Shown piece by piece: positions 5,949 through 55,771 of a stretch of 64,000 bases of DNA. Position 1 is the first letter of the stretch; every line of letters starts with the position of its first letter. This stretch comes from Nanobdellota archaeon (GTDB lineage Archaea; Nanobdellota; Nanobdellia; Pacearchaeales; GW2011-AR1). A program made the translations under genes and the position numbers. Under the pieces are notes generated by a model that had not been told where the DNA came from, did not search any database, and was given only the letters and a program-made list of their open reading frames with translations. The stretch spans positions 23,699 to 87,698 of the forward strand of contig JAQICZ010000043.1 of the NCBI GenBank assembly GCA_027858295.1. The letters run 5' to 3'.

Positions 5949-6764
5949 TTAAACTGCAATTGGACCCTTTATGTTCGGATGGGCAATATAATCTACCAAT
6001 TCAAAATCTTCAAATTTAAAGTCGAATATTGATTTGATAGATGGATTTATTTTCATCATTGGAAGTGGATATGGCTCTCTTGATAATTGCAAAGTCACTT
6101 GCTCGATATGATTTGAATAAATATGGGTATCACCTAAGGTGTGAACGAATTCACCTAATTCTAAATTACAAACTTGCGCCATCATCATTGTTAGTAGCGC
6201 ATATGAAGCAATATTGAATGGCACACCTAAAAAAGTATCGGCAGACCTCTGATAAAGCAGACATGAAAGTTTTCCATTTGCGACATAGAACTGGAAGAAT
6301 GCATGACAAGGTGGCAGATTCATATTCGGAATATCTGCAACATTCCAAGCACTTACAATTATTCTTCGCGAGTCGGGATTTACCTTAATTGTATTTACAG
6401 CCTCTTTTATTTGGTCTATACTCCCTCCTTGGTAATCTGGCCAGCTTCTCCACTGATAACCATAAATATGCCCAAGGTTTCCCTCTCTATCCGCCCATTC
6501 ATTCCAAATTCTTACTCCATTTTCTTGGAGATATTTAACATTTGTATCACCTGCCAAAAACCATAGCAGTTCATAGATTATTGATTTTAGGTGAAGCTTC
6601 TTTGTTGTTACCAATGGAAAACCTTCCCTTAGATCAAAGCGCATTTGGTAACCGAATACCGAAATTGTTCCGGTACCGGTTCTGTCTTCTTTTTGCACAC
6701 CGTTTTTTGAAACGTGCTTTAATAAATCTAGATATTGTCTCATTATGTTCGTTTTAATATTCAT
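5949..6764 (-). CDS. thyA: thymidylate synthase (ThyA type)
   Basis: Full-length ThyA motifs: [64 protein letters not shown]; real start may be the internal MRQYLDLL at 6743. Confidence 0.95.
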
Positions 6765-11813: not shown

Positions 11814-12464
11814 TTATGAAGCTTCTGACTGCCTTAAAGCATAGAACTTGGGAAACCAATGACTTGGAAGCTCTGTTTTTGCAATGGAGATGGCAGATTC
11901 TAAATCTACAAGCTCAACAACATAACGCCAACCATTAGAACTTGCGGAAATAATACTTATCTCCTTAGTCCGAATGTATTTAATTGCCGTATATTTTTCC
12001 TTGAGTTCAATTATAGATTGAACCCAGGCATACATTGAGGCTTTTTGATTTTCTTTATTTGAACTAAATATGCAAATATAGCCGGTACTGTTTCGAATCT
12101 TTTTTATATCTGCATTTATTATTTTCAAGCCCTTCAGTGCCCTTGAAGATTTAAAATTATCACTCAAAGAAACTGGACTCTCGTTACCAATGTAAATCTC
12201 CTTTTTTTCAATATATTCTACAAGTTGTTCTCCGAGGGGGCACCTTACTTTCAATACTTTGTATAACACTGAGCCTTTTACATCTTCCGTCTCAAAAAGA
12301 TAGATTGTTTTTTGTTTTGAACTTTTTGCAATATTTATAATTAATCTTTTGGAAGTAATTTTCTTATAATTACTTCTTTCTTTTCTTTTGGAACCTTTTG
12401 GGGCTCTCGAATTCTTTGAATTTCTTTGGTTTCTTTTCATAAGTTTGTCTCTTTTGTAATTCAT
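11814..12464 (-). CDS. hypothetical protein with basic N-terminal tail
   Basis: 216 aa; N-terminus KRNQRNSKNSRAPKGSKRKERSNYKK; alternative ATG at 12440. Confidence 0.55.
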   Translation of the reverse strand: MNYKRDKLMKRNQRNSKNSRAPKGSKRKERSNYKKITSKRLIINIAKSSKQKTIYLFETEDVKGSVLYKVLKVRCPLGEQLVEYIEKKEIYIGNESPVSLSDNFKSSRALKGLKIINADIKKIRNSTGYICIFSSNKENQKASMYAWVQSIIELKEKYTAIKYIRTKEISIISASSNGWRYVVELVDLESAISIAKTELPSHWFPKFYALRQSEAS

Positions 12465-12637
12465 TTTTTAATTAATATAATATAATATTCCCCCAATGTT
12501 GACTAACTAAAAAGTTCAATTCATCAATGTTCATTCTATTCTTCATAAATGATTTTATTTTGAAACTAATAAAATCCAATGCAAGCAATAAACCTTATTA
12601 GTTTCTGATTGACTACTACTAATATCCGTTAATCAAA

Positions 12638-13455
12638 TTAAACCTTAACGAGAACCTCTGATTTGCTTAATCTAAACCTTAAAATCTGTGAGTATTGCGG
12701 TATTGAAAAAAACTCCTTACTAGTGGAAGAAGTTTCAAGGCAGAACCCACCAAAAAGGGATGATTCAACAAATGACACCAACAAACCCGTTCCATCAACT
12801 AATGGTTCACCACTTGATGTTATTGAATAGGTTTCACCCTTACCCTCTTTAATTAAAATGTTTTTTATTATTTCCCCCGAAGGCTTTTTTAAGGAACCTA
12901 TAAAAAATAGAACGTTTGAACGCCTTAAGCCCAATTCCTGAAAAATCGCCAATATAGGGGCCCTTCTATTCTCTACTCTTTTTACATTTCTTATTTTTGA
13001 AATGTTTATACTTTCAGAGGCCAAAACCTCGATAACTTCTTCTGAAACAATATTCTCTTTGATCATTCTTTTGTTTTTTAATGATTATACACTTGTCCTT
13101 TTTAATCTCATTCAAGACAGTTGCTAGAAACTGGTTATCTTCAATATCCTTATCATAGCCTTCCATCTCCTTAGGCAGTTTATCGTCTATAGAGACCTTC
13201 AACTTGCCAAGATGTTCTCCTCGAGTTGTCCAGGTCTTTGGATTGCTTTCTCCAAAGATTGCATTAACAAATCGGATTGCGTCTCTTGCGTGCTTGTTTG
13301 GGGTCTCTTGACCATCTTTGAATTTATCAAGTTCTTCAAATATTACTTGTGGTAATATTATGTCGTTTCCTTCAAAACCGTAAAGCGACATAGGGTCATG
13401 TAATAGAACATTTGTATCTAATACGAATGTCTTCTTCTTACTTTCTAGGGTTCAT
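12638..13455 (-). pseudogene. PhoH-type PIN-domain nuclease gene, frameshifted
   Basis: ATG 13455 gives MNPRK then TAA. One frame over reads KKKTFVLDTNVLLHDPMSLYGFEGNDIILPQVIFEELDKFK...ARDAIRF...DNQFLATVL (PIN signature). A single extra T (A at 13440 on the + strand) accounts for the shift. A second frame change lies near 13014-13066. Confidence 0.6.
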
Positions 13456-15639: not shown

Positions 15640-15858
15640 CTCAGTTCTCCAGATAAAATTGAGTTAATCGTTCTGTATAGCCATTCGCCTTGGAATATGG
15701 CTAAGAACCATTTGCCTTGGCTTATGGGAAAACAAAGTAAACTTTGTTTAGCCGAAAATTTCAGACAGGTTAAATCGATCGGTAAACGATTTAACCTGTC
15801 TGAAATTTTGTATCTGGGTTGCATAAACTGTTCCTTTTTGAACAGAGTGGGAGAGGGT
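15640..15858. repeat. M-element copy 1 (about 220 bp, structured)
   Basis: Near-identical to 16659-16871. Contains two CCATTYGCCTTGGNNTATGG motifs (15681-15700, 15708-15727), a 23-bp perfect palindrome (15755-15809) and the hairpin CTGTTC-ctttTT-GAACAG. Confidence 0.85.
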
Positions 15859-15916
15859 ATGGTGGGGTTGGTTAACTTAGAGCTCAATCTTTTATTGAAG
15901 ACTTTAGGGACTGGAG

Positions 15917-16658: not shown

Positions 16659-16871
16659 CTCAGTTCTCCAGACAAAATTGAGTTAGTCCTTCTGTATAGC
16701 CATTCGCCTTGGAATATGGCTAAGAACCATTTGCCTTGGCTTATGGGAAAGCAAAGTAAACTTTGTTTAGCCGAAAATTTCAGACAGGTTAAATCTACTG
16801 GTAAACGATTTAACGAAATTTTGTATCTGGGTTGCATAAACTGTTCCTTTTTGAACAGAGTGGGAGAGGGT
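16659..16871. repeat. M-element copy 2
   Basis: Same orientation as copy 1; differs by fewer than 10 substitutions and a 6-nt deletion (ctgtct) that breaks the long palindrome. Confidence 0.85.
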
Positions 16872-16878
16872 GTGTTTG

Positions 16879-17556: not shown

Positions 17557-17597
17557 CTTATTTTAATTATTTGTTTTTGATTAATACTTTGTTTTTA

Positions 17598-17654
17598 TTG
17601 CTTGCCGCGAACCGTTGACGGTTGACTGTCTACAGCTTACGGTTGACGGTTGGC
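17598..17654 (-). repeat. R3 junction element copy a (TTGACGG heptamers)
   Basis: attgcttgccgcgaaccgttgacggttgactgtctacagcttacggttgacggttggc, about 42 nt upstream of the ATG at 17556; contains the palindrome AACCGT-TG-ACGGTT. Confidence 0.85.
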
Positions 17655-19098: not shown

Positions 19099-19143
19099 TT
19101 GTTTATTCTTTAAATTAATAATTGTGTTTTATTTTTATTTTGA

Positions 19144-19201
19144 ATTGCTTGCCGCGAACCGTTGACGGTTGGCTGTCTACAGCTTACGGTTGACGGTTGG
19201 C
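19144..19201 (-). repeat. R3 junction element copy b
   Basis: All but one position identical to copy a; about 46 nt upstream of the ATG at 19098. Confidence 0.85.
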
Positions 19202-19417
19202 TGTCGGTCTCTTGTGAAAAGCTGAATTTCCCTTAAAACTCTCCGACTCCAGGACAGATGAGTTTTATCCATGACGATTCTTTTTTTATGGTTTTTTACT
19301 TGAGCGAAGACGGGAAATATTGTCTCGCCTTTCGCTCGATTACTTGTTTTGATTCATTATCTCTAGCTGTGCTGGTAGATAATGATTGAAACTTCGGATA
19401 CAAATATCAGCTAATTG

Positions 19418-22159: not shown

Positions 22160-22972
22160 TCAATCTGAGGGATCTAACCAATAGGTGTCACCTATCAACC
22201 ACTCATTTAAAATAAGCTTTTGATAAACCGTAAAATTATTCACAGTCTCCTCACCAACCCTTGAGGCCATTGCTTCGATAAGACTATCCCTCATTGCCCT
22301 TACTGCGAGTCTTTTCTCGTTGGTCCAGTTAATAGAAATAACCTTTTTCAACTGAAAAATTAATTGTTTCCATTCCTTAGCCGTAAAACCGTTGTCTCTC
22401 TCTCTGTGGACTATCTCCTCGACCATCTTACCTTGAGGATAGGTTGCCTTCTCTGGAGCCAGGGCTTCCACTAATTGAAAAAAGTCAGCTCTTTTTAGAT
22501 AATCTTCAACATTGCTATTAAGATTCTCCATTTCATAATCTGCTAAATTATTAGGAATAAACATTTCAGAAAAATCAATCACTTCGCAATCTCCAGATAA
22601 CTTATTATTTAGACCCCCCAAGAAGATAGAACGCTCTTTTTGGGAGGTACACCAGACTGCAGAACATAGGGATTTTGGGGACATACTCTCCTTATCAAAA
22701 TCTAGAGCATCACCCCTTTTTCTAATAGTAGACTTCCTCCAGGGAAACTTTTTCATCAGGGATCCAAGTTGCTGATGATTTTTAGCCTTCATTATTATTG
22801 ACTTTGTCTCATAGTTATCTATCACAATTAAAACTATTGCAGGAGTTACGAACACTCTGTAAACACCTGCATTCTCAGCTATCAATGATATACCTAGAAA
22901 TGATACAATAAGAGCTAAAAAAACTATTAATACTTTTAGTTTAAATCTTTTTATTTCCTTAACTAAATTCAT
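22160..22972 (-). CDS. hypothetical membrane-anchored protein
   Basis: Track start 23050 is TTG and overlaps the upstream gene; ATG at 22972 gives MNLVKEIKRFKLKVLIVFLALIVSFLGISLI (TM). Confidence 0.5.
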   Translation of the reverse strand: MNLVKEIKRFKLKVLIVFLALIVSFLGISLIAENAGVYRVFVTPAIVLIVIDNYETKSIIMKAKNHQQLGSLMKKFPWRKSTIRKRGDALDFDKESMSPKSLCSAVWCTSQKERSIFLGGLNNKLSGDCEVIDFSEMFIPNNLADYEMENLNSNVEDYLKRADFFQLVEALAPEKATYPQGKMVEEIVHRERDNGFTAKEWKQLIFQLKKVISINWTNEKRLAVRAMRDSLIEAMASRVGEETVNNFTVYQKLILNEWLIGDTYWLDPSD

Positions 22973-23042
22973 AACCTTATTTTTATTTTTGTTTATTTCT
23001 ACTGTGAGTAACTGGTTTAATGCCGCTCTGTCTCTTTTTCCG

Positions 23043-23204
23043 TTATACAAGGAGGCTGTTAATTGTGCCCAAATCTTCTTTGCAATCTTTATTTGTAGAA
23101 CAAGCCCTTAGCTCTGAACTGCTCATTTTCCGGTAATTTCTACGATGATTTTGATTTGAACCTTCGCCACCAGACTTTTTGTTGTTATTGTTTCTTTTTG
23201 ACAT
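23043..23204 (-). CDS. hypothetical small polar/basic protein
   Basis: Track start is TTG; ATG at 23204 gives MSKRNNNNKKSGGEGSNQNHRRNY..., similar in composition to the QGGNG N-terminal family. Confidence 0.4.
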   Translation of the reverse strand: MSKRNNNNKKSGGEGSNQNHRRNYRKMSSSELRACSTNKDCKEDLGTINSLLV

Positions 23205-23231
23205 CTTACTCGGTATTTGTTTATTTTGCTT

Positions 23232-23589
23232 TTCTCCCAATTTTGACCAAAAATACAATTATTTCTAAATCTCAACATAACTTACATAACCTGAAAAAAT
23301 TGTTCGCTCCGCTCATATAAATTTTGAATTATCGCCGGTGGCAGATGCAAATAGTGTAAATTATTTTTTCAAAATTGATGCTATTTTCTGTTTGAAATAT
23401 AATATTTGCCTCTATACAAAAATGCCGCAGATTTTTTGGCACGACATATACCCAGAGCGAATGTCATAAGGAGTCGATAATTAAAGTGTCTTTATTCTGA
23501 GCTGTAGCGAAGGTCTTTTTTATCTTTAATGAGCTAATGTTGCTAAATATCAATGAATTAAACTTTTGAGTTAGTCAAAATTGGGAGAA
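23232..23589. other. segment flanked by 16-bp perfect inverted repeats (candidate invertible switch or MITE)
   Basis: TTCTCCCAATTTTGAC at 23232-23247 and its exact reverse complement GTCAAAATTGGGAGAA at 23574-23589 (19 of 20 if extended); the enclosed 326 bp contains R1 copy f. Confidence 0.8.
23303..23349 (-). repeat. R1 junction element copy f
   Basis: TTCGCTCCGCTCA ... TTTTGAATTATCGCC ... GGTGGCAGATGCA; same orientation as the other island copies. Confidence 0.65.
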
Positions 23590-23767
23590 GAGCCTTTATT
23601 TTATTTTTAGATAAAAGTATGAAAATGTGAATTATTTTATACTAAAATGCAAACCTACTTTGAATATGTTCTTTACTATCTCAAGGATTTTTGCTGTCTT
23701 GGGATAACCTTTTAACATATTTCATCCCTCTGATAAAAGAGTGGTGGATATTGCGAATATGACAATT

Positions 23768-24604
23768 TTAGTCTTCAAGTATTAATTCTCCTACTCTTTT
23801 AGACAAGGCATCTTTTGTCAATGAATCTGGACAAAATTTAAAACTTGTTTTGAGCGTATCCATGTCTGAAATAAAAGATGTAACATTAGTAATGACCTCA
23901 CTTAAAAATTCATCAAAAGCATCAAAGCTTTTCTTTTTTGGATGTAAGGAATCTAAATGCCTTATTGCTTTCATCATAATATCTTCTGATTTGATTATTC
24001 TAACCTCAAGAGTTTTAGCGGCAAAATCTGAATCTAAATAATAGTAGGTAAAAAGCATAGGGTAACTTCCGTTCAATATTCTTTTTTCTGCTCTTAATTG
24101 TGAAGAGCCTGAAAGGATTTCATAGATAACAACTAGGGTTGTCAAATCTAATTCCAAAATATCATTATTTATTTCGTCTTCGAGACTAGAAGCTTCTCGA
24201 CTGAGCGGTTTTGATAAATTTAATGCAAAGACTTTTTCCCTTATTGTTTCAGGAGCCCTTTCCCCTTCTACTACCTCTTCAAAATTTACTCTCCAGTTTT
24301 TAACATACTTAAGATGTCTACTATTAAAAGAACTGTAAAGTGTTTTGAAAGCAAATAATCTTTCACGGGAGCCCTTTGCCTCTTTGAGTCTTTTGTAAAG
24401 AAGTGCCCGAGCTATTCTTGCAGAATTTACTCTTGATATTGTGAAAAGCAATAATATTTCAACCACTAATGCAAGTATGAAATAAAAAATCGTTCCTTGT
24501 TCTAATACATTAAAAAGACCCCAAATGCTACAGGTAACCAACGCCGAGACTGCAATCCACAAAAGGATTGACCACAACCAGGTGGATTTTGGTATTTTTT
24601 TCAT
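23768..24604 (-). CDS. hypothetical membrane protein (two N-terminal TM helices)
   Basis: 278-aa ORF, ATG start, TAA stop. Confidence 0.55.
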   Translation of the reverse strand: MKKIPKSTWLWSILLWIAVSALVTCSIWGLFNVLEQGTIFYFILALVVEILLLFTISRVNSARIARALLYKRLKEAKGSRERLFAFKTLYSSFNSRHLKYVKNWRVNFEEVVEGERAPETIREKVFALNLSKPLSREASSLEDEINNDILELDLTTLVVIYEILSGSSQLRAEKRILNGSYPMLFTYYYLDSDFAAKTLEVRIIKSEDIMMKAIRHLDSLHPKKKSFDAFDEFLSEVITNVTSFISDMDTLKTSFKFCPDSLTKDALSKRVGELILED

Positions 24605-33516: not shown

Positions 33517-33544
33517 AATCTGTTTTTATTATTATTAATTTTTG

Positions 33545-33626
33545 TTCGCCGTCCGCTCAAGGATTGATAGGTTTAGTTATCGCTCCGGGCGGGGGTGAAT
33601 ATTGTGCTACTGTTTAAAATAGATTG
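33545..33626 (-). repeat. R1 junction element copy g (with TATA-like box)
   Basis: TTCGCCGTCCGCTCAAGGATTGATAGGTTTAGTTATCGCTCCGGGCGGGGGTGAA, then GTGCTACTGTTTAAAATAGATTG; 29 nt from the ATG at 33516. Confidence 0.85.
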
Positions 33627-34370: not shown

Positions 34371-34424
34371 AATATTAATTTTTTAATTTGTTTTAGAAAT
34401 TATTGTTGTTATCTATAAAATTAC

Positions 34425-34506
34425 TTCTCCCCCCGCTTGAGAATAATAACGTAATGTTATCCCTCAAAGTGCGGGAAAATATTGAGCTACTGTTTTATAA
34501 AGATTG
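34425..34506 (-). repeat. R1 junction element copy h
   Basis: TTCTCCCCCCGCTTGAG...GTTATCCCTCAAAGTGCGGGAAAATATTGAGCTACTGTTTTATAAAGATTG; ends 1 nt before the upstream stop codon (34508-34510). Confidence 0.75.
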
Positions 34507-34873: not shown

Positions 34874-35042
34874 AACGTTTATTTTTACTTATGTTAAAAA
34901 ACCAACCCTCCTCAAAAATTAATAAGTTAGGCTGATGAATAGATCTTATTATTAGTTCATATAAATGCCGAAATAAAAATTTATTCCTTTTTTCATAACA
35001 TTTAAACTTTAGTTGATTTTTGAACTTTCTTTACTTAATTAC

Positions 35043-35112
35043 TTCGCCGTCCGCTCAAGAATTGACAGGTTTAGTTATCGCTCCGGTGCGTGCAGGTTTT
35101 GATTACTTCACC
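35043..35112 (-). repeat. R1 junction element copy i
   Basis: TTCGCCGTCCGCTCAAGAATTGACAGGTTTAGTTATCGCTCCGGTGCGTGCAGGTTTTGATTACT. Confidence 0.85.
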
Positions 35113-35610: not shown

Positions 35611-35687
35611 TTCTAAGAGAAATTGATAGCTTTAGTTATCGCTTCTGGGCGGGGGGTGAAGATTGTGCTACTATTTTAAATAGATTG
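35611..35687 (-). repeat. R1 junction element copy j (left arm degenerate)
   Basis: AATTGATAGCTTTAGTTATCGCTTCTGGGCGGGGGGTGAAGATTGTGCTACTATTTTAAATAGATTG. Confidence 0.8.
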
Positions 35688-36322: not shown

Positions 36323-36371
36323 CTTTTTTAATTTTGTGCATTATAATTATTTAGTTAACTTTAAAACATTG

Positions 36372-36450
36372 TTAGCCGTCCGCTCAAAAATTGATAGGTT
36401 TAGTTATCGCTCCGGGCGGGGGTGAAGATTGGATTGCTGCTTGTAAATAT
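36372..36450 (-). repeat. R1 junction element copy k
   Basis: TTAGCCGTCCGCTCAAAAATTGATAGGTTTAGTTATCGCTCCGGGCGGGGGTGAAGATTGG. Confidence 0.85.
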
Positions 36451-36776: not shown

Positions 36777-36806
36777 TTTGTTTTATTTTATTATTATCAA
36801 TTTTTC

Positions 36807-36872
36807 TTCGCCGTCCGTTCATAATTGATAGGTTTAGTTATCGCTCGCTGTGCGTGCAGGTTTTGATTACTG
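36807..36872 (-). repeat. R1 junction element copy l
   Basis: TTCGCCGTCCGTTCATAATTGATAGGTTTAGTTATCGCTCGCTGTGCGTGCAGGTTTTGATTACT; 31 nt from the ATG at 36776. Confidence 0.85.
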
Positions 36873-39003: not shown

Positions 39004-39040
39004 GTTGTTTATGTTATTGTTAATTTATTTAGAATTTTCC

Positions 39041-39107
39041 TTCGCCGTCCGCTCAGGACTGATAAGTTATGTTATCCCTCGCGGTGCGTGCAGAAATTGA
39101 GCTACTT
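39041..39107 (-). repeat. R1 junction element copy m
   Basis: TTCGCCGTCCGCTCAGGACTGATAAGTTATGTTATCCCTCGCGGTGCGTGCAGAAATTGAGCTACT; 38 nt from the ATG at 39003. Confidence 0.85.
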
Positions 39108-39634: not shown

Positions 39635-40202
39635 CCCTTATTGATTTTTTAGAAATTATTACTTATTGTATGTTATTTCAATTATTTCTCATAGATAAAA
39701 CAGAATAAGATAGTTGCAACTAAGTTGTTTTTTGATGAAATACCTTGTGTTTCGTTTTTTTCTTTGGTTATTTCGGGTATTTCAGTGTTGTTTTACTGAA
39801 ATGTCCTTAACCGAAGTTGGAAACTGGGGGTATTTTATCTAAAAATCTTGGTCGATTTTTGGATGTTCAGATGTCTTTAGGTTATTTTTGTCAATAAAGT
39901 AAAGGTTGTTTTATCTGAGGTGTATATTTATGAGTGTGAATGGGATATGCAAACCGTAAACCGTTAACGGCTGACCGGAAGTAAGGGCCAATTGTAGCAA
40001 AAAAATGATTTGTTTTCTTTGCCTGGAATATTTTTAGTTTTTGTGACTATTTAAATTTTGTTGTTTGTTGTACTTTTTTAGTGACACTTTTTGGGTTTAT
40101 TTTTGCGTGTTGGGATCATTAATGAATTAGTTGTTGGTTGTTGGTTGTTAGTTTGGGTTAAGGAACCTAAAAACTAAAGACTAACTACTAAGGACTGACT
40201 AG

Positions 40203-42734
40203 CTACGCTAATCGTATGTACTTCTTCCAGCCCTTGTCTGACTTTACTTCTTCAACTTTGATCAAATTCTTCTCTAGTAGCTTGTTTTTTATCACGTTTC
40301 CTTTTCTGGCTGATAATCCCACAATATCGTATAATGCTACTGTTGCATTTTTATGAGCGGGGTTTTCTTTTAGGAATTTTAATAGTTTCAATTCTTCTTC
40401 TGAAATTTTTAGGGGACTGTTGACGGTTGACGGTTGACAGTTGACCGACAAGGCCGGGCTTGTTTTTGAAACTGACGTTTGATTTTTCATTTCTGGGTTA
40501 CTTGCCACAGGTTCTTCTCTTTTTTCCTCAACAATAGGTCTTTCAGGTATTTCGGACTGTTGACTGTTGATGGTAGGGGTAGATTCTAAATTTGGTGAAA
40601 GAGTCGATAGCTCCCCCAGATTAGTTGGGGCAATCAGTTGATCAGTATTAACAGGAGTTGGTATTTTTATTTCATTGACAGTTGAAGTCTGGGGTTTGAG
40701 AGTTGGGGTAATAATCTTTTCAACACTAGCAGATACTGATTCCTTTATTTTCTTACTTGATTTAAATTGTTGCTCAAAGGCGTGGTTTATTGCTTTCATT
40801 ATATCTGTCGTTGTATAATATTCTTCGTGTAGTCCTTCTTCTAATAACGACTCTATTTGATTTAGCTTCATTCCTTCATTCATCTTTTCGCAGGCAAAGT
40901 AGTATAACACTTCTTGAGCTGGAGTCAAAGAGGGAGTCTCACTAACTACTGGGAAAGAGGGTAGCATTTCTGATGTCGGACTTTTGACATCAGAGCTTGA
41001 GGCCTGAAGCTGGAGGTCTGAAGCTTTGGGTAAGGGATGTTCTGATTGTTCGATACTGCTAATTTCGGGGTTTTCCGGGTCTGTCTCTGTGGATAGCGAT
41101 TCTTCGATTTGTCGATTGTTCGATTGTTCAGAGAAGGGAAGTGTGTAGGTAAAGGACTCTGCCGATTCGATTGGCGGCTGTTCGATTGTCCGATTGTCCG
41201 ATGAGTTTACAGGATTAACTACGTCTTCTACTGATGAGACTACTTCTGAAATTGGGTGGTGATCTTTATCACCTGTTAAGGCGACCATTGGCCTATCCTC
41301 TGGTTCTCTAGTAAATTTTATTTCTTCAATAAATTCTGGGTCTTCCTTTTCCCCTCTGAAACCTTCAACTAAACATTGAGCTCTTACTCTAATATCGTCA
41401 TCTGTAATTTTGCCTTCCCTTAAATCTGTATAAGGAACGCTTACTAAGAAGGGTGTTGTATGCCTTTCTGATAGTTTTATTATTGCCTTCCCTATTGGGA
41501 GTTGTGAAAAACTTTCTTTTGTTTCTCTCATTTGCATTAATGACGAAATTGCTTCAATATCTTGAGGTAACTGCTGCTGGAAGGCTATATGACATGCAGA
41601 GTTTCCAACTACTGTATCTGAAAGTTTTGAGATATGCTGATCTAAACAAATTAATCCTGTTCCATATTCTCTCATCTCTCTATAAATCATATCTGTTACT
41701 GATTCTGCCATAAAGTTTGTAGTTTTTTTCAAGAAAACATTATGAGCCTCGTCTACTAGAATTGCGTGATTGAATCCTGCATCAATTGCATTTGGATTTG
41801 CTTTTTTTAATCTATAAATGTAAGTTAGAACATATTCACAGAAGAATTTCTTTTCAATTGTTGATAGGGAATTTAATTCCAAAACCACTCTCTTATCGAA
41901 GAGGTCTTCAATTGACATTCCTCTTTTTCCATCATAGTTTACAAATTGACCAAAGCTACCGAAGGTTAAGACTGAGGCGATTCTTAATGCTGATTCATAC
42001 CAACCAGTCTCTCTACCTTTTGCTTCTCTACCTTTTGCTTCAAGCATTCTTTTTACGTGTTGCCAATTTGGATAGTGAGTTGCACCTTTGTAAATTCCCC
42101 AAGCCTCGTAAATTTCGTCTAGCGTTTCTAAAAGAATTTTATGAACACCGAAGGACGCTGAGAAACTTTCAGTTAATAAATCACATAATGTATTAATCCA
42201 TTCTTTTGGGTTTACACCTTTTGGTGGTCTGTTAATATTTACTTTGAATAAATTTGAAACCTTGTCATTTCCGACTGTGAAGGTCATTAAGTTTTTGTCG
42301 AGTGAAGTTAATGGTCTAAAACTTGATTTCCAATCGAAGACCAGAAATGGTTTATCTTTTTTTATGAATTCTTTTAGAATATTGATTGCGAATGTTGTTT
42401 TACCTGAACCACTCATACCACTAACACAAACATGTCTTGGCCAATCTTTTTCTCTTAAACCAAAACCATACAAATCCTTGTCTGCGTAGCTTACTTTCGC
42501 TAAAGGGTATTCACCGTCTACAGTTCCTTCTTTAGGTGGCGCCAAAAGAACTTGTTTGTCTAATAATTTGTTCAAATGTTTTTGGTATAAACTAGAAAGG
42601 ATTTGGTGAATCTCATTTTTTTCTTCTAAAGTTGAAGCCACAGAATATCTGAAATATAATTCATCAATTTTTTTACCAAATAATGGTTTTAGCCCAGCCG
42701 CTAATTCTTCTACACTTGTTGCTCTGTACATCAT
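40203..42734 (-). CDS. HerA/FtsK-superfamily (DUF87-like) ATPase with long disordered linker and C-terminal wHTH-like domain
   Basis: 843 aa. Walker A GMSGSGKT (aa 106-113, nt 42396-42419), Walker B AILVDEAH, LICLDQ motif. About 300 aa of S/T/P/E/Q-rich low complexity. C-terminus LKFLKENPAHKNATVALYDIVGLSARKGNVIKNKLLEKNLIKV. ATG overlaps the upstream TGA (ATGA). Confidence 0.75.
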   Translation of the reverse strand: MMYRATSVEELAAGLKPLFGKKIDELYFRYSVASTLEEKNEIHQILSSLYQKHLNKLLDKQVLLAPPKEGTVDGEYPLAKVSYADKDLYGFGLREKDWPRHVCVSGMSGSGKTTFAINILKEFIKKDKPFLVFDWKSSFRPLTSLDKNLMTFTVGNDKVSNLFKVNINRPPKGVNPKEWINTLCDLLTESFSASFGVHKILLETLDEIYEAWGIYKGATHYPNWQHVKRMLEAKGREAKGRETGWYESALRIASVLTFGSFGQFVNYDGKRGMSIEDLFDKRVVLELNSLSTIEKKFFCEYVLTYIYRLKKANPNAIDAGFNHAILVDEAHNVFLKKTTNFMAESVTDMIYREMREYGTGLICLDQHISKLSDTVVGNSACHIAFQQQLPQDIEAISSLMQMRETKESFSQLPIGKAIIKLSERHTTPFLVSVPYTDLREGKITDDDIRVRAQCLVEGFRGEKEDPEFIEEIKFTREPEDRPMVALTGDKDHHPISEVVSSVEDVVNPVNSSDNRTIEQPPIESAESFTYTLPFSEQSNNRQIEESLSTETDPENPEISSIEQSEHPLPKASDLQLQASSSDVKSPTSEMLPSFPVVSETPSLTPAQEVLYYFACEKMNEGMKLNQIESLLEEGLHEEYYTTTDIMKAINHAFEQQFKSSKKIKESVSASVEKIITPTLKPQTSTVNEIKIPTPVNTDQLIAPTNLGELSTLSPNLESTPTINSQQSEIPERPIVEEKREEPVASNPEMKNQTSVSKTSPALSVNCQPSTVNSPLKISEEELKLLKFLKENPAHKNATVALYDIVGLSARKGNVIKNKLLEKNLIKVEEVKSDKGWKKYIRLA
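40419..40449. repeat. four tandem TTGACGG-type heptamers inside the ATPase gene
   Basis: TTGACGG TTGACGG TTGACAG TTGACCG read directly; the same heptamer builds the R3 elements. Confidence 0.8.
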
Positions 42735-43834: not shown

Positions 43835-44052
43835 CTAAATTAGAGCATCATCGCTTCGCGATTTGAGTTTGGTTCATAGTAACAGAGTTAGAGATAATAA
43901 ACGGGACAATTGGGATTTATTTTACAAGCTAGGTACGCAGCGGATAATATTATGCTTTCTTATGGGTGGGATTTTCTATCAGCTTCAGCCTCCAAATAAA
44001 AAGCTGAGAGGAATTGCCCTGGGTGGGGATCACTGACCGAAGGGAAGGTCTG
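43835..44052. repeat. tRNA-proximal tandem repeat unit A1
   Basis: Shares with A2: ATCGCTTCGCGATTT, ACAATTGGG, CGCAGCGGATAATATTATG, TTATGGGTGGG, ATCAGC, GGAATTGCC(C/T)TGGGTGGG(G/A)ATCACTGACCGAA(G/A)GGAAGGT. Confidence 0.8.
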
Positions 44053-44116
44053 TTTTGGATGGACAAGGGTAGGGGAAATAAAAAAATAGAAAAACCAATA
44101 CAAAGGCCGAAGGCAG

Positions 44117-44414
44117 CTAAATTAATGTGTAATCGCTTCGCGATTTTGGGTCGGGTTCGTGAAAGCAGATATTGGGAATTACAACAGAACAATTGGGGTT
44201 CATTCAACAATCTAGGCTCGCAGCGCAGCGGATAATATTATGTGTTTATGGGTGGGCTTTTCAATCAGCGTCAGAAAAAGAAGTGAGCTAGACCATTTGC
44301 CTGTAAATATGGGTGCCAAAATTTCAGACAAGTTAAAACCCTTGGTAAAGTTTTAACGAAATTTTGTCTGTGGAATTGCCTTGGGTGGGAATCACTGACC
44401 GAAAGGAAGGTATG
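44117..44414. repeat. tRNA-proximal tandem repeat unit A2 (carries an M-type insertion)
   Basis: Same blocks as A1 plus an insert of about 90 nt (44285-44372) holding a CCATTTGCCTGTAAATATGG motif and the hairpin GTTAAAAC/GTTTTAAC. Confidence 0.8.
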
Positions 44415-44456
44415 TTTGAAGAGATAAAACTGCAAAAATGGGGTTGTAAGAAAATA

Positions 44457-44539
44457 TGCAGGTGACAGGGTTTGAACCTGCGTAGACATAAGTCAATGGA
44501 TTTTGAGTCCATCCCGTTTGACCACTCCGGCACACCTGC
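44457..44539 (-). tRNA. tRNA-Leu (anticodon CAA)
   Basis: Hand-folded cloverleaf: acceptor GCAGGTG/CACCTGC plus discriminator A; anticodon stem ATGGA/TCCAT with loop CTCAAAA; long variable arm; T arm GCAGG-TTCAAAC-CCTGT; no encoded CCA. Confidence 0.9.
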
Positions 44540-44634
44540 ATATATTATTACTACAACATATTTCGTTTTTAATAATTTCCATTAGGTCCAATTGTTACCT
44601 TAATTATTATAGAGTTTCTTTAGCTATGATTACT

Positions 44635-44761
44635 GTCAAATTTTTGCTAAGATTCTGCTCTACCACACCCTGGTGGAATTCCATTCGCTTTGGAATATGG
44701 GAAAGCAAAAATTCTTGGGATTTTTTACTTAAAGGGATGTGGCTTCAATTTGAAGACATGT
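44635..44761. repeat. B-element copy 1
   Basis: gtcaaatttttgctaagattctgctctaccacaccctggtggaattCCATTCGCTTTGGAATATGGgaaagcaaaaattcttggga...gaagacatgt; 189 nt upstream of the L18e ATG. Confidence 0.85.
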
Positions 44762-44949
44762 AAGAATAGCCAAAAAACTCTCAAAGCCACTATTTGAGAT
44801 GTATTCCCGAATTTGTAATAATTGGGAGAATGACGCCCAACCAAAAAAATGTCTACCCAAACTTTTATAAACTAAAAAAAATTCAAGTTGATATCCGCAA
44901 GTCACAGGCGTTAGCGGGAAGTTATACTTCTCGTTAGGAAAATACAAAA

Positions 44950-46335: not shown

Positions 46336-46902
46336 TTAATTTTTATTGTTATGTGCCTTTGGATTGATTTTTCTTCGTCTTAGCATTTTTTCTAGTTTAT
46401 CTTGAACGTGGTTGAATAATGTTGAAGAGACTAGGTGATTATGCTTGCCCTCATGGACTTCACCATCAAATTTTATTTTCCCAATATATGTGAAATTCAT
46501 TAAAATCTTCTTTAATCCATTGAGTGAAATCCCGTATTTTTTTGAAAGTTGGTTAAGGCTTGTCTCTGTGGCTAAAAAATCTTCATAGATTGTTTCTACC
46601 ATTTCTGAATTTTGAGCTGGAAATAACTTACCCTTTCTTATTTCATAACCAAATGGGGCTCTTGACATAACCTTTCCTTCTTTTGCCTTTTCTACCATAC
46701 CTCTCTTTTGCTTTACCCCTCCGAGATTCCCTTGTTTTCTATAAGTTTGAAGATCTCTCCAGTTAGTTTTTTCTTCTACATATATATTAAATAATTCTTT
46801 TTTGTCTGGCGCAAAATAAGAACAAAATTCACAGAGTCTTCTTTCGTGAAAAATTTTGTTTTTTGCGGATTTGTATTCACATTTATAGCATTCTGACATC
46901 AT
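46336..46902 (-). CDS. Recombinase-domain (PF07508-like) protein with N-terminal zinc ribbon, lacking a resolvase catalytic domain
   Basis: CYKCEY...CEFCSYF, then APFGYEIRKGKL.P...E...V..IYEDF....SL.QL.KKYGIS..GLKKIL.N..YIG; ATG at 46902 is 1 nt after the xer stop (the track start 46923 overlaps xer). Confidence 0.55.
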   Translation of the reverse strand: MMSECYKCEYKSAKNKIFHERRLCEFCSYFAPDKKELFNIYVEEKTNWRDLQTYRKQGNLGGVKQKRGMVEKAKEGKVMSRAPFGYEIRKGKLFPAQNSEMVETIYEDFLATETSLNQLSKKYGISLNGLKKILMNFTYIGKIKFDGEVHEGKHNHLVSSTLFNHVQDKLEKMLRRRKINPKAHNNKN

Positions 46903-46903
46903 A

Positions 46904-47743
46904 CTACCTACCCATTGCGACATCTAATGGCGACTTTATTTTTTTTAATTCTTCTGGAGAAACATGTGTGTAAATTTGTGTTGTTGACAAGTCTGCATGT
47001 CCGAGCAGCTCCTGAATTTTTCTTATATCAACTTCATTCTCTAGCAAGTGAGTCGCGAAAGAATGCCTTAGGGTATGTGTGTGAACTTCCTTTTTTATGC
47101 CTGCCTTGACACCTGCATTCTTTACAACCTTCTGAACATTTCTGTCAGACATTTGTTTTCCATTCCTACCAGAAAACATATAAGTTTCTCCAAACTCTTT
47201 TTGAATCTCTGAATATCTTTTCAATTTTGAAATTAAAAATAATGGAATATTGAAAATTCTATCCTTCTTACCCTTTCCTTGCCTTACATGCCCTATTTTA
47301 TCATCAAAATCTAACTCATTAATTTTTAAATTTGTTATTTCTGATACCCTCATCCCAGTTGCATAGACTAAAGATATCATCATTCTTGATTTTTTATTAT
47401 TTAGAGCCTCTAGCAACGCGAAGATCTCGGCCTTCGTCAAAACAACGGGCAATCTTTTTTCTCTTTTCGGTCTTCTAATATGTGCTGTTGGATCCACTTT
47501 AGTAATACTTGTGTAAGCATATTTTACTGCAGATAAAAACATAATAATTGAGATTGCAGAACGTTCACTCAAATTATCTGCTATGTATAATTTAACATCG
47601 TCCTCGGTAATCTGTTCTGGTTCTTTATTTATATAATCAAGAAGCTGAGAGTTTAATCTTATGTAATTCTTTAAAGTGTGAGCTGAGTTCTTCGCAATTT
47701 TTAGTTCGATTTCAAGTTTTTTTAAGAATTCCTGTTTGTTCAT
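46904..47743 (-). CDS. xerA: XerA/XerC/XerD-family tyrosine recombinase
   Basis: 279 aa; ATGMRVSE (Arg), HTLRHSFATHLL (HxxR), LGHADLSTTQIYTHV (His/Tyr); length typical of archaeal XerA. Confidence 0.85.
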   Translation of the reverse strand: MNKQEFLKKLEIELKIAKNSAHTLKNYIRLNSQLLDYINKEPEQITEDDVKLYIADNLSERSAISIIMFLSAVKYAYTSITKVDPTAHIRRPKREKRLPVVLTKAEIFALLEALNNKKSRMMISLVYATGMRVSEITNLKINELDFDDKIGHVRQGKGKKDRIFNIPLFLISKLKRYSEIQKEFGETYMFSGRNGKQMSDRNVQKVVKNAGVKAGIKKEVHTHTLRHSFATHLLENEVDIRKIQELLGHADLSTTQIYTHVSPEELKKIKSPLDVAMGR

Positions 47744-50121: not shown

Positions 50122-50463
50122 ATGGGCAGAGAGGAAAAAATCCAATTGATTGCAGGATTTCTTTTTATTATATTGATCTTGCTTGGGATTGTTTTAGCCC
50201 TTCAGATAAAAACTACAAAAACAACTCAAATTGACATTTCTAAAAATTTGAATTTTGCGTCTGCAAATGTAATAGAAGATTATATGGACAAAGAATTTGC
50301 GTCTAACAATATTAAAGAAGATAGTTATGTTAAAAACAAAATCATTCCTAAAGAGTATTCCTCCTGGGGAAAACATACAAAGTCCATAACATTAGGGCTT
50401 TATTCTGACAACTATGAAGTTAATGTCAAATTTTTGCTAAGATTCTGCTCTGCCACACCCTAG
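50122..50463 (+). CDS. hypothetical N-terminally anchored protein
   Basis: ATG at 50122 gives MGREEKIQLIAGFLFIILILLGIVLALQ; the last 13 codons run into B-element copy 2, so the 3' end is doubtful. Confidence 0.4.
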   Translation: MGREEKIQLIAGFLFIILILLGIVLALQIKTTKTTQIDISKNLNFASANVIEDYMDKEFASNNIKEDSYVKNKIIPKEYSSWGKHTKSITLGLYSDNYEVNVKFLLRFCSATP

Positions 50464-50756
50464 TGGAATTCCATTCGCTTTGGAATATGGGAAAACGAAA
50501 TTCTCAGGCAGATAAAATAATTGGAAAATATTTTATTGGAGAATTTGTTTAAAGGGTGTGGCCTGACGAGCGGAATCTTCGAGACGCAAAAATCATCCAC
50601 TCCCTCTATTTGCGGAAATGGTCGCCCTTCGGGTGCCATAAAACCGAAGGAAGGTATCCACACCCTAGTGGTTTTCCATTCGCTTTGGTGTATGGGAAAG
50701 CAAAAATTCTTGGGAATTTTTACTTAAAGGGATGTGGCTTCGATTTGAAGACATGT
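50425..50756. repeat. B-element copy 2 (with internal duplication/insert)
   Basis: 50425-50497 matches 44635-44707 and 50659-50756 matches 44664-44761; about 160 nt of related modules lie between; two CCATTCGCTTTGG(AA/TG)TATGG motifs (50471-50490, 50676-50695). Confidence 0.85.
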
Positions 50757-50946
50757 GAAAAATCTAGAAGGAGGAAGATATTATATCGTGGAGTATACCT
50801 TTTATGATTATTTTGGAAACAAAAGAGTCTATGAAATTAAAAAATATGTTTTTGGATATGAAGAAGAAATGTTTAAATTTAGAGACATTTCTAAAGGCAT
50901 GACATATTACGATACTTGGAAATATAAAATCCTTCCACAAAAATGA
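50755..50946 (+). CDS. hypothetical small protein
   Basis: GTG starts at 50755 or 50788 (AAGGAGG at 50768-50774); TGA overlaps the ATG of the LysE-type gene; start uncertain. Confidence 0.35.
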   Translation: MKNLEGGRYYIVEYTFYDYFGNKRVYEIKKYVFGYEEEMFKFRDISKGMTYYDTWKYKILPQK

Positions 50947-54047: not shown

Positions 54048-54235
54048 GTCAAATTTTTGCTGAAATTTGTACTCCCTTGGGAAATCGTACAAATTTATTA
54101 ACGCAAAAGTCATCCACTCGCACAATATATATTCACAGAATAGGGTTAGCCCTGTTGAATGCCATTCGCTATAGAATATGGAAGAACAAATTCTTTTTTG
54201 AGAATTTGTCCAGGGAAGCAAAAATTCATAGACAA
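54048..54235. repeat. B-element copy 3 (divergent)
   Basis: gtcaaatttttgctgaaatt..., gcaaaagtcatccactcgc (compare 50588-50606), CCATTCGCTATAGAATATGG at 54162-54181; ends 50 nt before the pentapeptide gene. Confidence 0.7.
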
Positions 54236-54974: not shown

Positions 54975-55328
54975 ATGAGTAAAAAATTGTTTATAGGAAA
55001 TTTGGATTTTAAGACAGCTGATAAGGATTTAGAAGATATGTTTTCAGGATATGGAGATATTAATGATTGTGTTATAATTAAGGATCGAGAAACTGGCAGA
55101 TCAAAGGGCTTTGGATTTGTAACTTTTGATGATGATGAAGCGGCTGAGAAAGCGGTTGAGGGATTGAACGAGAAGGAAGTTAGAGGTCGTAAACTTACTG
55201 TTAATATTGCTAAGGAGAGAGAAGAATCGACTCCCAGATTTAATAATAATCCAAGGTTTGAGAGAAGAGAATCTGAACCAGAAGATGAGTATTCGAAATA
55301 TTTTACTACTACGCTTATGAGAGATTAG
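54975..55328 (+). CDS. RRM-type RNA-binding protein with acidic/basic tail
   Basis: LFIGNL (RNP-2), KGFGFVTF (RNP-1); AGGAGG at 54962-54967; the first 8 residues are nearly identical to the 48673 paralog. Confidence 0.85.
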   Translation: MSKKLFIGNLDFKTADKDLEDMFSGYGDINDCVIIKDRETGRSKGFGFVTFDDDEAAEKAVEGLNEKEVRGRKLTVNIAKEREESTPRFNNNPRFERRESEPEDEYSKYFTTTLMRD

Positions 55329-55771
55329 GGGGAATGCCGACTGCTAACAGCAAACGGCTGACCGCTTTATTATTTTTATTTTTTTATTAATATTTTTTTG
55401 TTTGGGCCAATTGGGCTTGTTGAAGAATTTGAGGAGGCCGGGAGGCTTTTTTGGACTGGTGAGAATGCGTTGAATTTTATGTTTCTTGATGGCTGTTTGG
55501 CTTTTCGGGGTGATGATTTGGTGAGTTTTTGATAGTCTAGTTTTTGGGGCAAGGGTTTGGTGAAGTTGCTTACGCACCCGCTGCACTTCGCCCGCCTTCG
55601 GGCAGGGCGAGTTTGCTCTGCTTGGACAGTTAAGGTACAAATACGGGGGCAGAGGTCGTTTGTTGGAGGTTGGTGGTGGGGTTGCTTGTGATTGTTTTTG
55701 TAGAATGCGTTAACTTTGGTTTGTTTTGTAGTAAAGAATTATTAGCTATAATTACTCTGTTTAATCGAGCA

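Follow-up and report, generated by a model that had tools for sequence, protein, structure and literature searches.

Correia elements (CREE), repeats of Neisseria, are transposon-like MITEs that carry promoters; these bacterial elements measure 100–160 bp, duplicate a TA, are present by the hundreds and have shown promoter activity. Prokaryotic MITEs span 50–800 bp, with terminal inverted repeats (TIRs) of at least 10–15 bp and target-site duplications (TSDs) of 2–10 bp, and a woesearchaeal genome stands among the most MITE-dense archaeal genomes, with 105 per Mb (PMC11602168). Inverted repeats also bound invertible promoters such as fimS of E. coli and the invertons of Bacteroides, for which four features are expected: an inverted-repeat pair around a segment of about 100–800 bp, a promoter that faces a gene in one orientation only, both orientations within the population, and a dedicated, usually adjacent, site-specific recombinase. 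Archaeal invertons exist and have barely been studied, with 12 reported in 42 genomes (10.1101/2023.03.11.532203).

We analysed an inverted-repeat pair within a 64-kb stretch of archaeal DNA (hereafter the window), for which an initial annotation had preferred a recombinase-driven invertible promoter and had kept a MITE as the alternative. The preferred proposal finds no support in the symmetric R1 modules of the interior, the lack of a dedicated recombinase, the parental junctions of the assembled contigs and the outcome of a graph simulation. The alternative fits better as regards the TIRs, the size, the lack of a credible ORF, the candidate TSD and the contig ends, on evidence that is indirect and comes without a second full copy. 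Altogether, we read the two arms as the terminal inverted repeats of a 363–367-bp non-coding, MITE-like unit that occurs in several contexts, an interpretation to which we attach about half of our belief.

Host and island

By sequence, the host is recognisable as a DPANN archaeon, Woesearchaeota/Nanoarchaeota-like: its UvrB is 72–74% identical to homologues from Nanoarchaeota/Woesearchaeota MAGs, and the flanking contigs encode archaeal RNA polymerase subunits and L21e. Because the window is archaeal and not bacterial, reasoning based on sigma-70 or on Bacteroides cases does not carry over to it; note that a scan for sigma-70 promoters and terminators gave chance-level results.

Window positions 1–44400, together with about 2.5 kb further left, form a ~47-kb island made almost entirely of minus-strand ORFans, which abuts a tRNA-Leu(CAA) gene (44456–44540). 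The island encodes a VirB4/CedB/CedD/HerA-like ATPase of 843 aa (40203–42734), a thymidylate synthase (5949–6764), a PIN-domain protein (13014–13391) and paralogous secreted proteins at 1–4 kb; no integrase was seen within its ~47 kb. It may be an integrated element for conjugation or DNA transfer, or else a provirus. At the island boundary, a 46-nt direct repeat (44010–44055 and 44372–44417, 91%), which could be an att-like or processing sequence, lies just upstream of the tRNA-Leu gene, and a 31-nt imperfect inverted repeat (44434–44464 and 44533–44563, 81%) brackets that gene.

Other repeats were recorded along the window. A short repeat family with the core CCACACCCTRGTGG..TTCCATTCGCTTTGG..TATGGGAAA and copies 91–94% identical is present at 44630–44766, 50420–50500 and 50658–50761, and also at about 54114–54152. 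The sister strain of JGI 3300051639 shows indel differences in this region, and the JGI 3300051640 assembly breaks at the same family (50.49–50.70 kb), one contig ending at 50488 and the next starting near 50705. In addition, G+C-rich, ACCGTTGACGGTTGAC-like heptamer runs (CGGTTGA repeats) stand in AT-rich intergenic DNA at 17611–17640, 19158–19215, 39928–39977, 40416–40445 and 55315–55364, two of them inside 93-nt repeats (17562–17654 and 19109–19201).

Inverted repeats and unit boundaries

The 16-mer TTCTCCCAATTTTGAC lies at 23232..23247 on the plus strand (left arm, the proposed left TIR) and its exact reverse complement at 23574..23589 (right arm, minus strand, the proposed right TIR), with 326 nt in between. 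When GCT[T/C] is added, the arms match at 19 of 20 positions, and imperfect arms of 23 nt (91%) can be traced at 23228–23250 and 23571–23593. The pair is placed inside a 563-nt spacer, between the minus-strand ORF 23768..24604 on one side and the ORFs 23043..23204 and 22160..22972 on the other. On the perfect 16-bp repeats, the 326-bp interior, the 19 of 20 matches and the 563-bp spacer, the initial annotation agrees exactly with the sequence, and a pair identical at 16 of 16 positions around 326 nt has the dimensions expected of an inverton.

For perfect inverted repeats with arms of 16 nt or more and a spacer of 30–1000 nt, 64 kb should contain 0.05 by chance according to shuffles in 500-nt blocks and 0.12 according to a Markov-1 model; taken by itself, the 16-mer pair is only marginally unusual, with roughly 1–2 per Mb arising by chance. 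The 16-mer has no further exact copy in the 64-kb window. Beyond the arms, both unit ends align over ~70 nt with one 6-nt indel, and this alignment, the third copy at 12488–12528 and the mirror-oriented, diverged R1 modules (both described below) together identify the inverted repeat as a product of homology rather than chance. The window has only one other perfect inverted repeat of 16 nt or more, the 22-nt GATTTAACCTGTCTGAAATTTT (15788–15809 and 16774–16795), which sits in a direct repeat of ~220 nt (15640–15861 versus 16659–16874, 96–98% identity, 1019 nt apart).

The whole unit bounded by the repeats (23228..23594, no strand assigned) measures 363–367 nt, reads 5' GCTT-TTCTCCCAATTTTGAC ... 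GTCAAAATTGGGAGAA-GAGCC 3', and is non-coding and two-fold symmetric. Contig ends and simulation (see below) place its boundaries at 23232 on the left, with a mismatch at 23231, and at 23594 on the right. The right boundary, 5 nt outside the inverted repeat, coincides with the end defined by the candidate TSD; the left boundary falls 4 nt inside the TSD-defined end, an offset that would be explained if other copies have C, not T, at 23231, as the right end has here.

The initial annotation had seen TTATTTT near both outer flanks and had judged it not strictly adjacent. With the unit taken to run from 23228 (GCTT...) to 23594 (...GAGCC), the 8-nt direct repeat TTTATTTT abuts the unit on both sides (plus strand, 23220..23227 and 23595..23602), the right copy beginning where contig-end arithmetic puts the right edge of the unit, and it is taken as a candidate target-site duplication. 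Direct repeats of 8 nt or longer in flanks of 20 nt are found at 0.75% of random positions and at 2.7% of equally AT-rich ones, and TTTATTTT is an AT-only, low-complexity sequence in AT-rich DNA (p~0.03).

No ORF longer than 43 aa lies wholly within the unit, and none of the assemblies on record has the 43-aa interior ORF among its called genes. With TIRs longer than 10–15 bp and a length of 363–367 bp that holds no transposase gene, the unit falls within the description of MITEs given above. As RNA, the 391 nt that include the arms fold at z = -5; the interior without the arms shows no excess folding over shuffled sequence (z -0.7 and -0.2), so that the strong score is wholly due to the arms. 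Rfam searches, at the gathering threshold over the whole window and by E-value over 22900–23900, returned only the tRNA-Leu and chance-level snoRNA/DUF805b matches.

R1 modules and the third arm copy

R1 is an upstream repeat of the island, with six canonical copies on the plus strand (33541–33601, 34421–34480, 35039–35097, 36369–36427, 36803–36861 and 39037–39096; nhmmer E 1e-14 to 3e-19) and a partial copy at 35621–35660. The canonical copies measure 60–85 nt, share one orientation and lie mostly 26–50 nt upstream of the starts of minus-strand ORFs, within the 33–39 kb block that adjoins the VirB4/CedB-like ATPase gene. The core of the repeat is TTCGCCGTCCGCTCA-N-TGATAGGTTTAGTTATCGCTC, the family has no match in Rfam, and it has the look of a common operator or upstream promoter element in a mobile island of an archaeon.

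The initial annotation had located R1 copy f inside the bracketed segment, facing the downstream genes, and this is borne out: the copy (23300..23379, plus strand) is diverged, scores 20.5 against canonical R1 in gapped local alignment compared with 11.2 +/- 1.4 for shuffles (0/300), and its TTCGC end points left to the minus-strand ORFs 23043..23204 and 22160..22972. What had been overlooked is a second R1-like module in mirror orientation (23470..23512, minus strand), which faces right to the 3' end of 23768..24604 and scores 15.0 against 10.4 +/- 1.3 (0/300), the wrong strand being not significant. Both relatives are significant in the outward orientation only, and both fit a three-block pattern that had 0 occurrences in 300 simulations; neither is reached by nhmmer with a profile built from the six canonical copies. 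By their alignment, copy f and the mirror copy are diverged members of the R1 upstream repeat, resembling the six canonical copies at 33.5–39.1 kb in sequence and in orientation to the gene, with the right copy mirrored.

Each module is located 55–62 nt from its own arm, giving the order arm, ~60 nt, outward R1, centre, outward R1, ~60 nt, arm. A Smith-Waterman alignment of one whole interior half with the other did not reach significance (136/1000 shuffles), the detectable homology between them comprising only the R1 blocks and the ends. The promoter-like modules thus do not face a gene in one orientation only: they point outward on both sides, and because of this a flip of the segment would exchange like for like, with no ON/OFF switch.

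The third arm copy is a solo one, TTCCCCCAATGTTGACTAACTAAAAAGTTCAATTCATCAAT, which includes ~25 nt of adjoining sequence (12488..12528, plus strand) and has neither a partner arm nor R1. It matches the right end of the unit at 30 of 33 positions (blastn E 7e-6; 0 expected in shuffles), its similarity ends at the outer edge of the 16-mer, and it stands 23 nt upstream of the ATG of the minus-strand ORF 11814..12464. The left arm of the unit likewise precedes a basic ORF of 53 aa (23043..23204, minus strand), which starts 27 nt outside the arm and is not a called gene in the collection; its N-terminus resembles residues 8–41 of ORF 11814..12464 (BLASTP E 2e-4, a weak match in a low-complexity basic region).

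The larger neighbours are ORFans. The downstream one (22160..22972, minus strand) has 270 aa, or 296 aa when read from a TTG at 23050, a form that is not on record; its sole match in 5.8e9 clusters is itself. The upstream one (23768..24604, minus strand) has 278 aa and ends, at its stop codon, 178 nt from the right arm. For both flanking proteins, no homologue was found among the 5.8 billion protein clusters.

Small ORFs at 12472–12588 (-), 23123–23278 (-) and 23537–23569 (+) cross the arm copies in the same frame, with peptides ..VSQHWGN.., ..GQNWEKS.. and ..VSQNWEKS... Two of them begin with ATGTTG 24–25 nt after an R1 module, the right-hand one having an in-frame TGA. They are either fortuitous or what remains of the 5' end of a small gene; since the C-termini are unlike one another and a stop codon interrupts the frame in the right copy, the idea that the arm is coding was set aside.

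Recombinases and transposases

The tyrosine recombinase and the Recombinase-domain protein that the initial annotation had noted at 46.3–47.7 kb turn out to be of unequal standing. The first (46904–47743) scores 228 bits against a cut-off of 220 for the NCBIfam XerA equivalog and has core genes as neighbours (rplM/rpsI, a HAD hydrolase, an RRM protein and a patatin). From this gene context and score it is identified as the housekeeping dif recombinase, archaeal XerA, and its gene is 23 kb away from the unit. The second (46336–46923, 195 aa) is a weak, partial hit to the serine-recombinase 'Recombinase' domain that has no match to a catalytic domain, and its ORF overlaps the XerA gene by 20 nt. 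The sister strain of JGI 3300051639 has two ORFs in its place, of 106 and 71 aa, and the gene is probably in decay.

When 49 island ORFs were scanned against Pfam, neither a recombinase nor a transposase was found, and the ~84 kb of this genome that are covered by the window and its flanking contigs hold no transposase or parent IS. The dedicated, usually adjacent recombinase expected of an inverton is thus missing among these 49 ORFs, XerA being in a core context.

Further copies and assembly breaks

The initial annotation had proposed a search for other copies of the repeat or of the whole unit, and this succeeded in part: the solo, diverged arm copy at 12488–12528 was found, and no second full unit, either in the 64 kb of the window or in the ~20 kb by which flanking contigs extend it (~84 kb). 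A degenerate pattern of the four junctions had no match in GTDB genomes, JGI metagenome contigs or IMG/VR, and it missed known positive contigs too, so that the collections as scanned must be without the samples that hold this organism. In these same collections, which lack this organism's samples, R1 and end-consensus patterns also gave no match. A blastn search against plasmids and phages gave no copy either.

Exact-protein look-ups returned contigs of the same organism, 99.8–100% identical, from four other assemblies, and all of the contigs that reach the spacer stop in or next to the unit. In JGI 3300051640, a 46.8-kb contig starts at 23286 and a 27-kb contig ends at 23516, this break being the sole one in the 74 kb spanned by the two contigs that abut there; in JGI 3300051639, a 10-kb contig ends at 23541. 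In Logan SRR22875240 (k=31), the inner ends of the left-flank and right-flank contigs are at 23261 and 23565, and in Logan SRR22875241 the right-flank contig has its inner end at 23609, 20 nt outside the right arm. Five contigs from three other assemblies cross an arm, and all five carry the parental junction (flipped junction, 0/5). The two orientations expected of an inverton population are therefore not seen on the five assembled contigs, which leaves room for flipping at low frequency.

We simulated node-centric de Bruijn unitigs and read the ends of the flank unitigs under each scenario. With both orientations present, the ends fall at 23247 and 23574 at any k; with one flipped junction at k=31, they fall at (23261, 23574) or (23247, 23560). 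A second copy of 23232..23594 in unrelated flanks gives (23261, 23565) at k=31 and (23285, 23541) at K=55. The second-copy scenario at k=31 thus equals the Logan pair exactly, and at K=55, a value assumed for the JGI assemblies, its prediction of 23285 and 23541 compares with 23286 and 23541 observed; the JGI contig end at 23516 is explained only by adding one SNP between the copies. None of the inversion scenarios yields the observed (23261, 23565), and for the Logan sample the two ends also conflict logically with inversion: a left contig that halts at 23261 would call for a junction that, if present, would have halted the right contig at 23574. Circle-junction and tandem forms and a presence/absence polymorphism of the unit were also worked through by hand, and their predicted contig ends differ from those observed. 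The assemblies would thus break at the unit because 23232–23594 has another context, with different flanks on both sides, and not because it flips. As regards the several copies in different flanks that mark a MITE, the contig ends match a second context, and one solo end is present at 12488–12528.

Discussion

In the reading that we prefer, a MITE-like unit would have inserted in the AT-rich spacer 16–24 nt upstream of the 53-aa and 270-aa ORFs, each of its halves consisting of a terminal repeat of 16–20 nt, ~55–62 nt of diverged sequence and an outward-facing R1 copy. In the source communities, the unit would exist in at least one further sequence context (another insertion or another variant of the element), which would account for the short-read assemblies breaking within it. 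The candidate 8-bp TSD and this second context suggest that the unit is mobile. Once in place, its left R1 module may supply promoter or regulatory sequence to the 53-aa and 270-aa ORFs, a role that is plausible given that canonical R1 copies lie 26–50 nt upstream of ORF starts, and its right module may read antisense into the 278-aa gene, whose 3' end it faces.

Several observations weigh against a MITE-like unit. Its interior consists of the island's own R1 repeats, which a local inverted duplication would explain too; neither a second full copy nor a transposase or parent IS was seen in ~84 kb; and the candidate TSD is AT-only in AT-rich DNA (p~0.03). The main rival, to which we give distinctly less weight, is a static, diverged inverted duplication at a single locus. 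Under it, back-to-back promoter or leader modules of R1 type would form a bidirectional regulatory region, the 16-mer would be kept as a protein-binding or core-promoter element, and the second context would be this module in a related island variant, at a mosaic junction, and no transposed copy. Both halves are indeed outward-facing relatives of R1, and elsewhere in the island canonical copies precede minus-strand ORFs by 26–50 nt; the solo copy and the left arm are each 23–27 nt upstream of an ATG, with products that share a basic N-terminus; ATGTTG follows R1 by 24–25 nt in both halves, in the same frame through the 16-mer; and no transposase was found in ~84 kb. However, the second module would have no plus-strand gene to serve on the right, where there are only ORFs of 22–26 aa, and the homology of all three copies ends at most 5 nt from the outer edge of the 16-mer, like the terminus of an element. 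The flanking 8-nt direct repeat TTTATTTT and a second context with different flanks on both sides also count against it.

The inversion of the segment, in which a recombinase crossover within the 16-bp arms would flip 23248–23573 and swap the R1 module facing the 53-aa and 270-aa ORFs, appears unlikely. Its geometry is that of known invertons (arms of 16–23 nt, a promoter-like interior of 326 nt), the arms are identical and the rest of the halves diverged, a pattern that gene conversion, or selection acting on the recombination sites, would produce, the assemblies break at the locus, and a few archaeal cases have been reported (12 in 42 genomes; 10.1101/2023.03.11.532203). Against this, the 5/5 junction-bearing contigs from three assemblies are parental, simulated flips never give (23261, 23565), the symmetric interior allows no OFF state, and the candidates for a recombinase come down to XerA, 23 kb off in a core context, and a partial hit. 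The symmetry is accommodated in a variant that we regard as quite unlikely, a promoter-exchange cassette in which XerA, or an enzyme not seen here, would work in trans on the 16-bp arms and so change which of two different R1-type promoters serves the downstream ORFan operon, the opposite one giving a transcript antisense to the upstream gene; it would be the first inverton in DPANN archaea. Very improbable, finally, is a chance inverted repeat or a long-range RNA stem with no role at the DNA level. The expectation of 0.05–0.12 such 16-mer repeats per window and the fold of the 391-nt RNA with its arms (z = -5) speak for it, but chance is excluded by the third copy and the 70-nt end homology, the interior without the arms folds like shuffles and has no significant Rfam match, and the assembly breaks would be left unexplained.

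If the MITE-like reading is true, the unit adds one more short interspersed repeat to a lineage already reported as MITE-rich and, with its two outward-facing copies of the island's R1, could disseminate regulatory sequence across a mobile island of an archaeon. The unit also fragments the metagenome assemblies of this organism. For inverton calling based on inverted repeats, the locus calls for caution, in that repeat geometry plus a recombinase somewhere in the window is insufficient; note that contig-end arithmetic could separate a repeat from a flip without reads.

Comparison with known systems

With the invertible promoters (fimS of E. coli, the Bacteroides invertons and those described with PhaseFinder and PhaVa), the unit shares arms of 16–23 bp around a few hundred base pairs of promoter-like DNA directly upstream of genes. 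Unlike them, it shows no flipped junction in the assemblies, and inversion cannot reproduce the contig ends; moreover, its symmetric interior has no OFF orientation, and no invertase is adjacent, with only the housekeeping XerA present.

The Correia elements provide a parallel in that they too are small, TIR-bounded repeats inserted just upstream of genes, with promoter-like sequence that can read out into the neighbours. They differ in that the host here is archaeal and in that the promoter activity of the unit is deduced solely from its similarity to R1.

Compared with prokaryotic MITEs as a whole, the unit departs in two respects: a second full-length copy and a parent IS were not observed in ~84 kb, and its interior is built of two mirror copies of the island's R1 in place of recognisable IS ends. 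In its other features it is like them, being short and non-coding, set in an AT-rich intergenic site, bounded by TIRs of 16–20 bp and a candidate 8-bp TSD, accompanied by no transposase in ~84 kb, and breaking short-read assemblies (three of them) in the way that repeats do.
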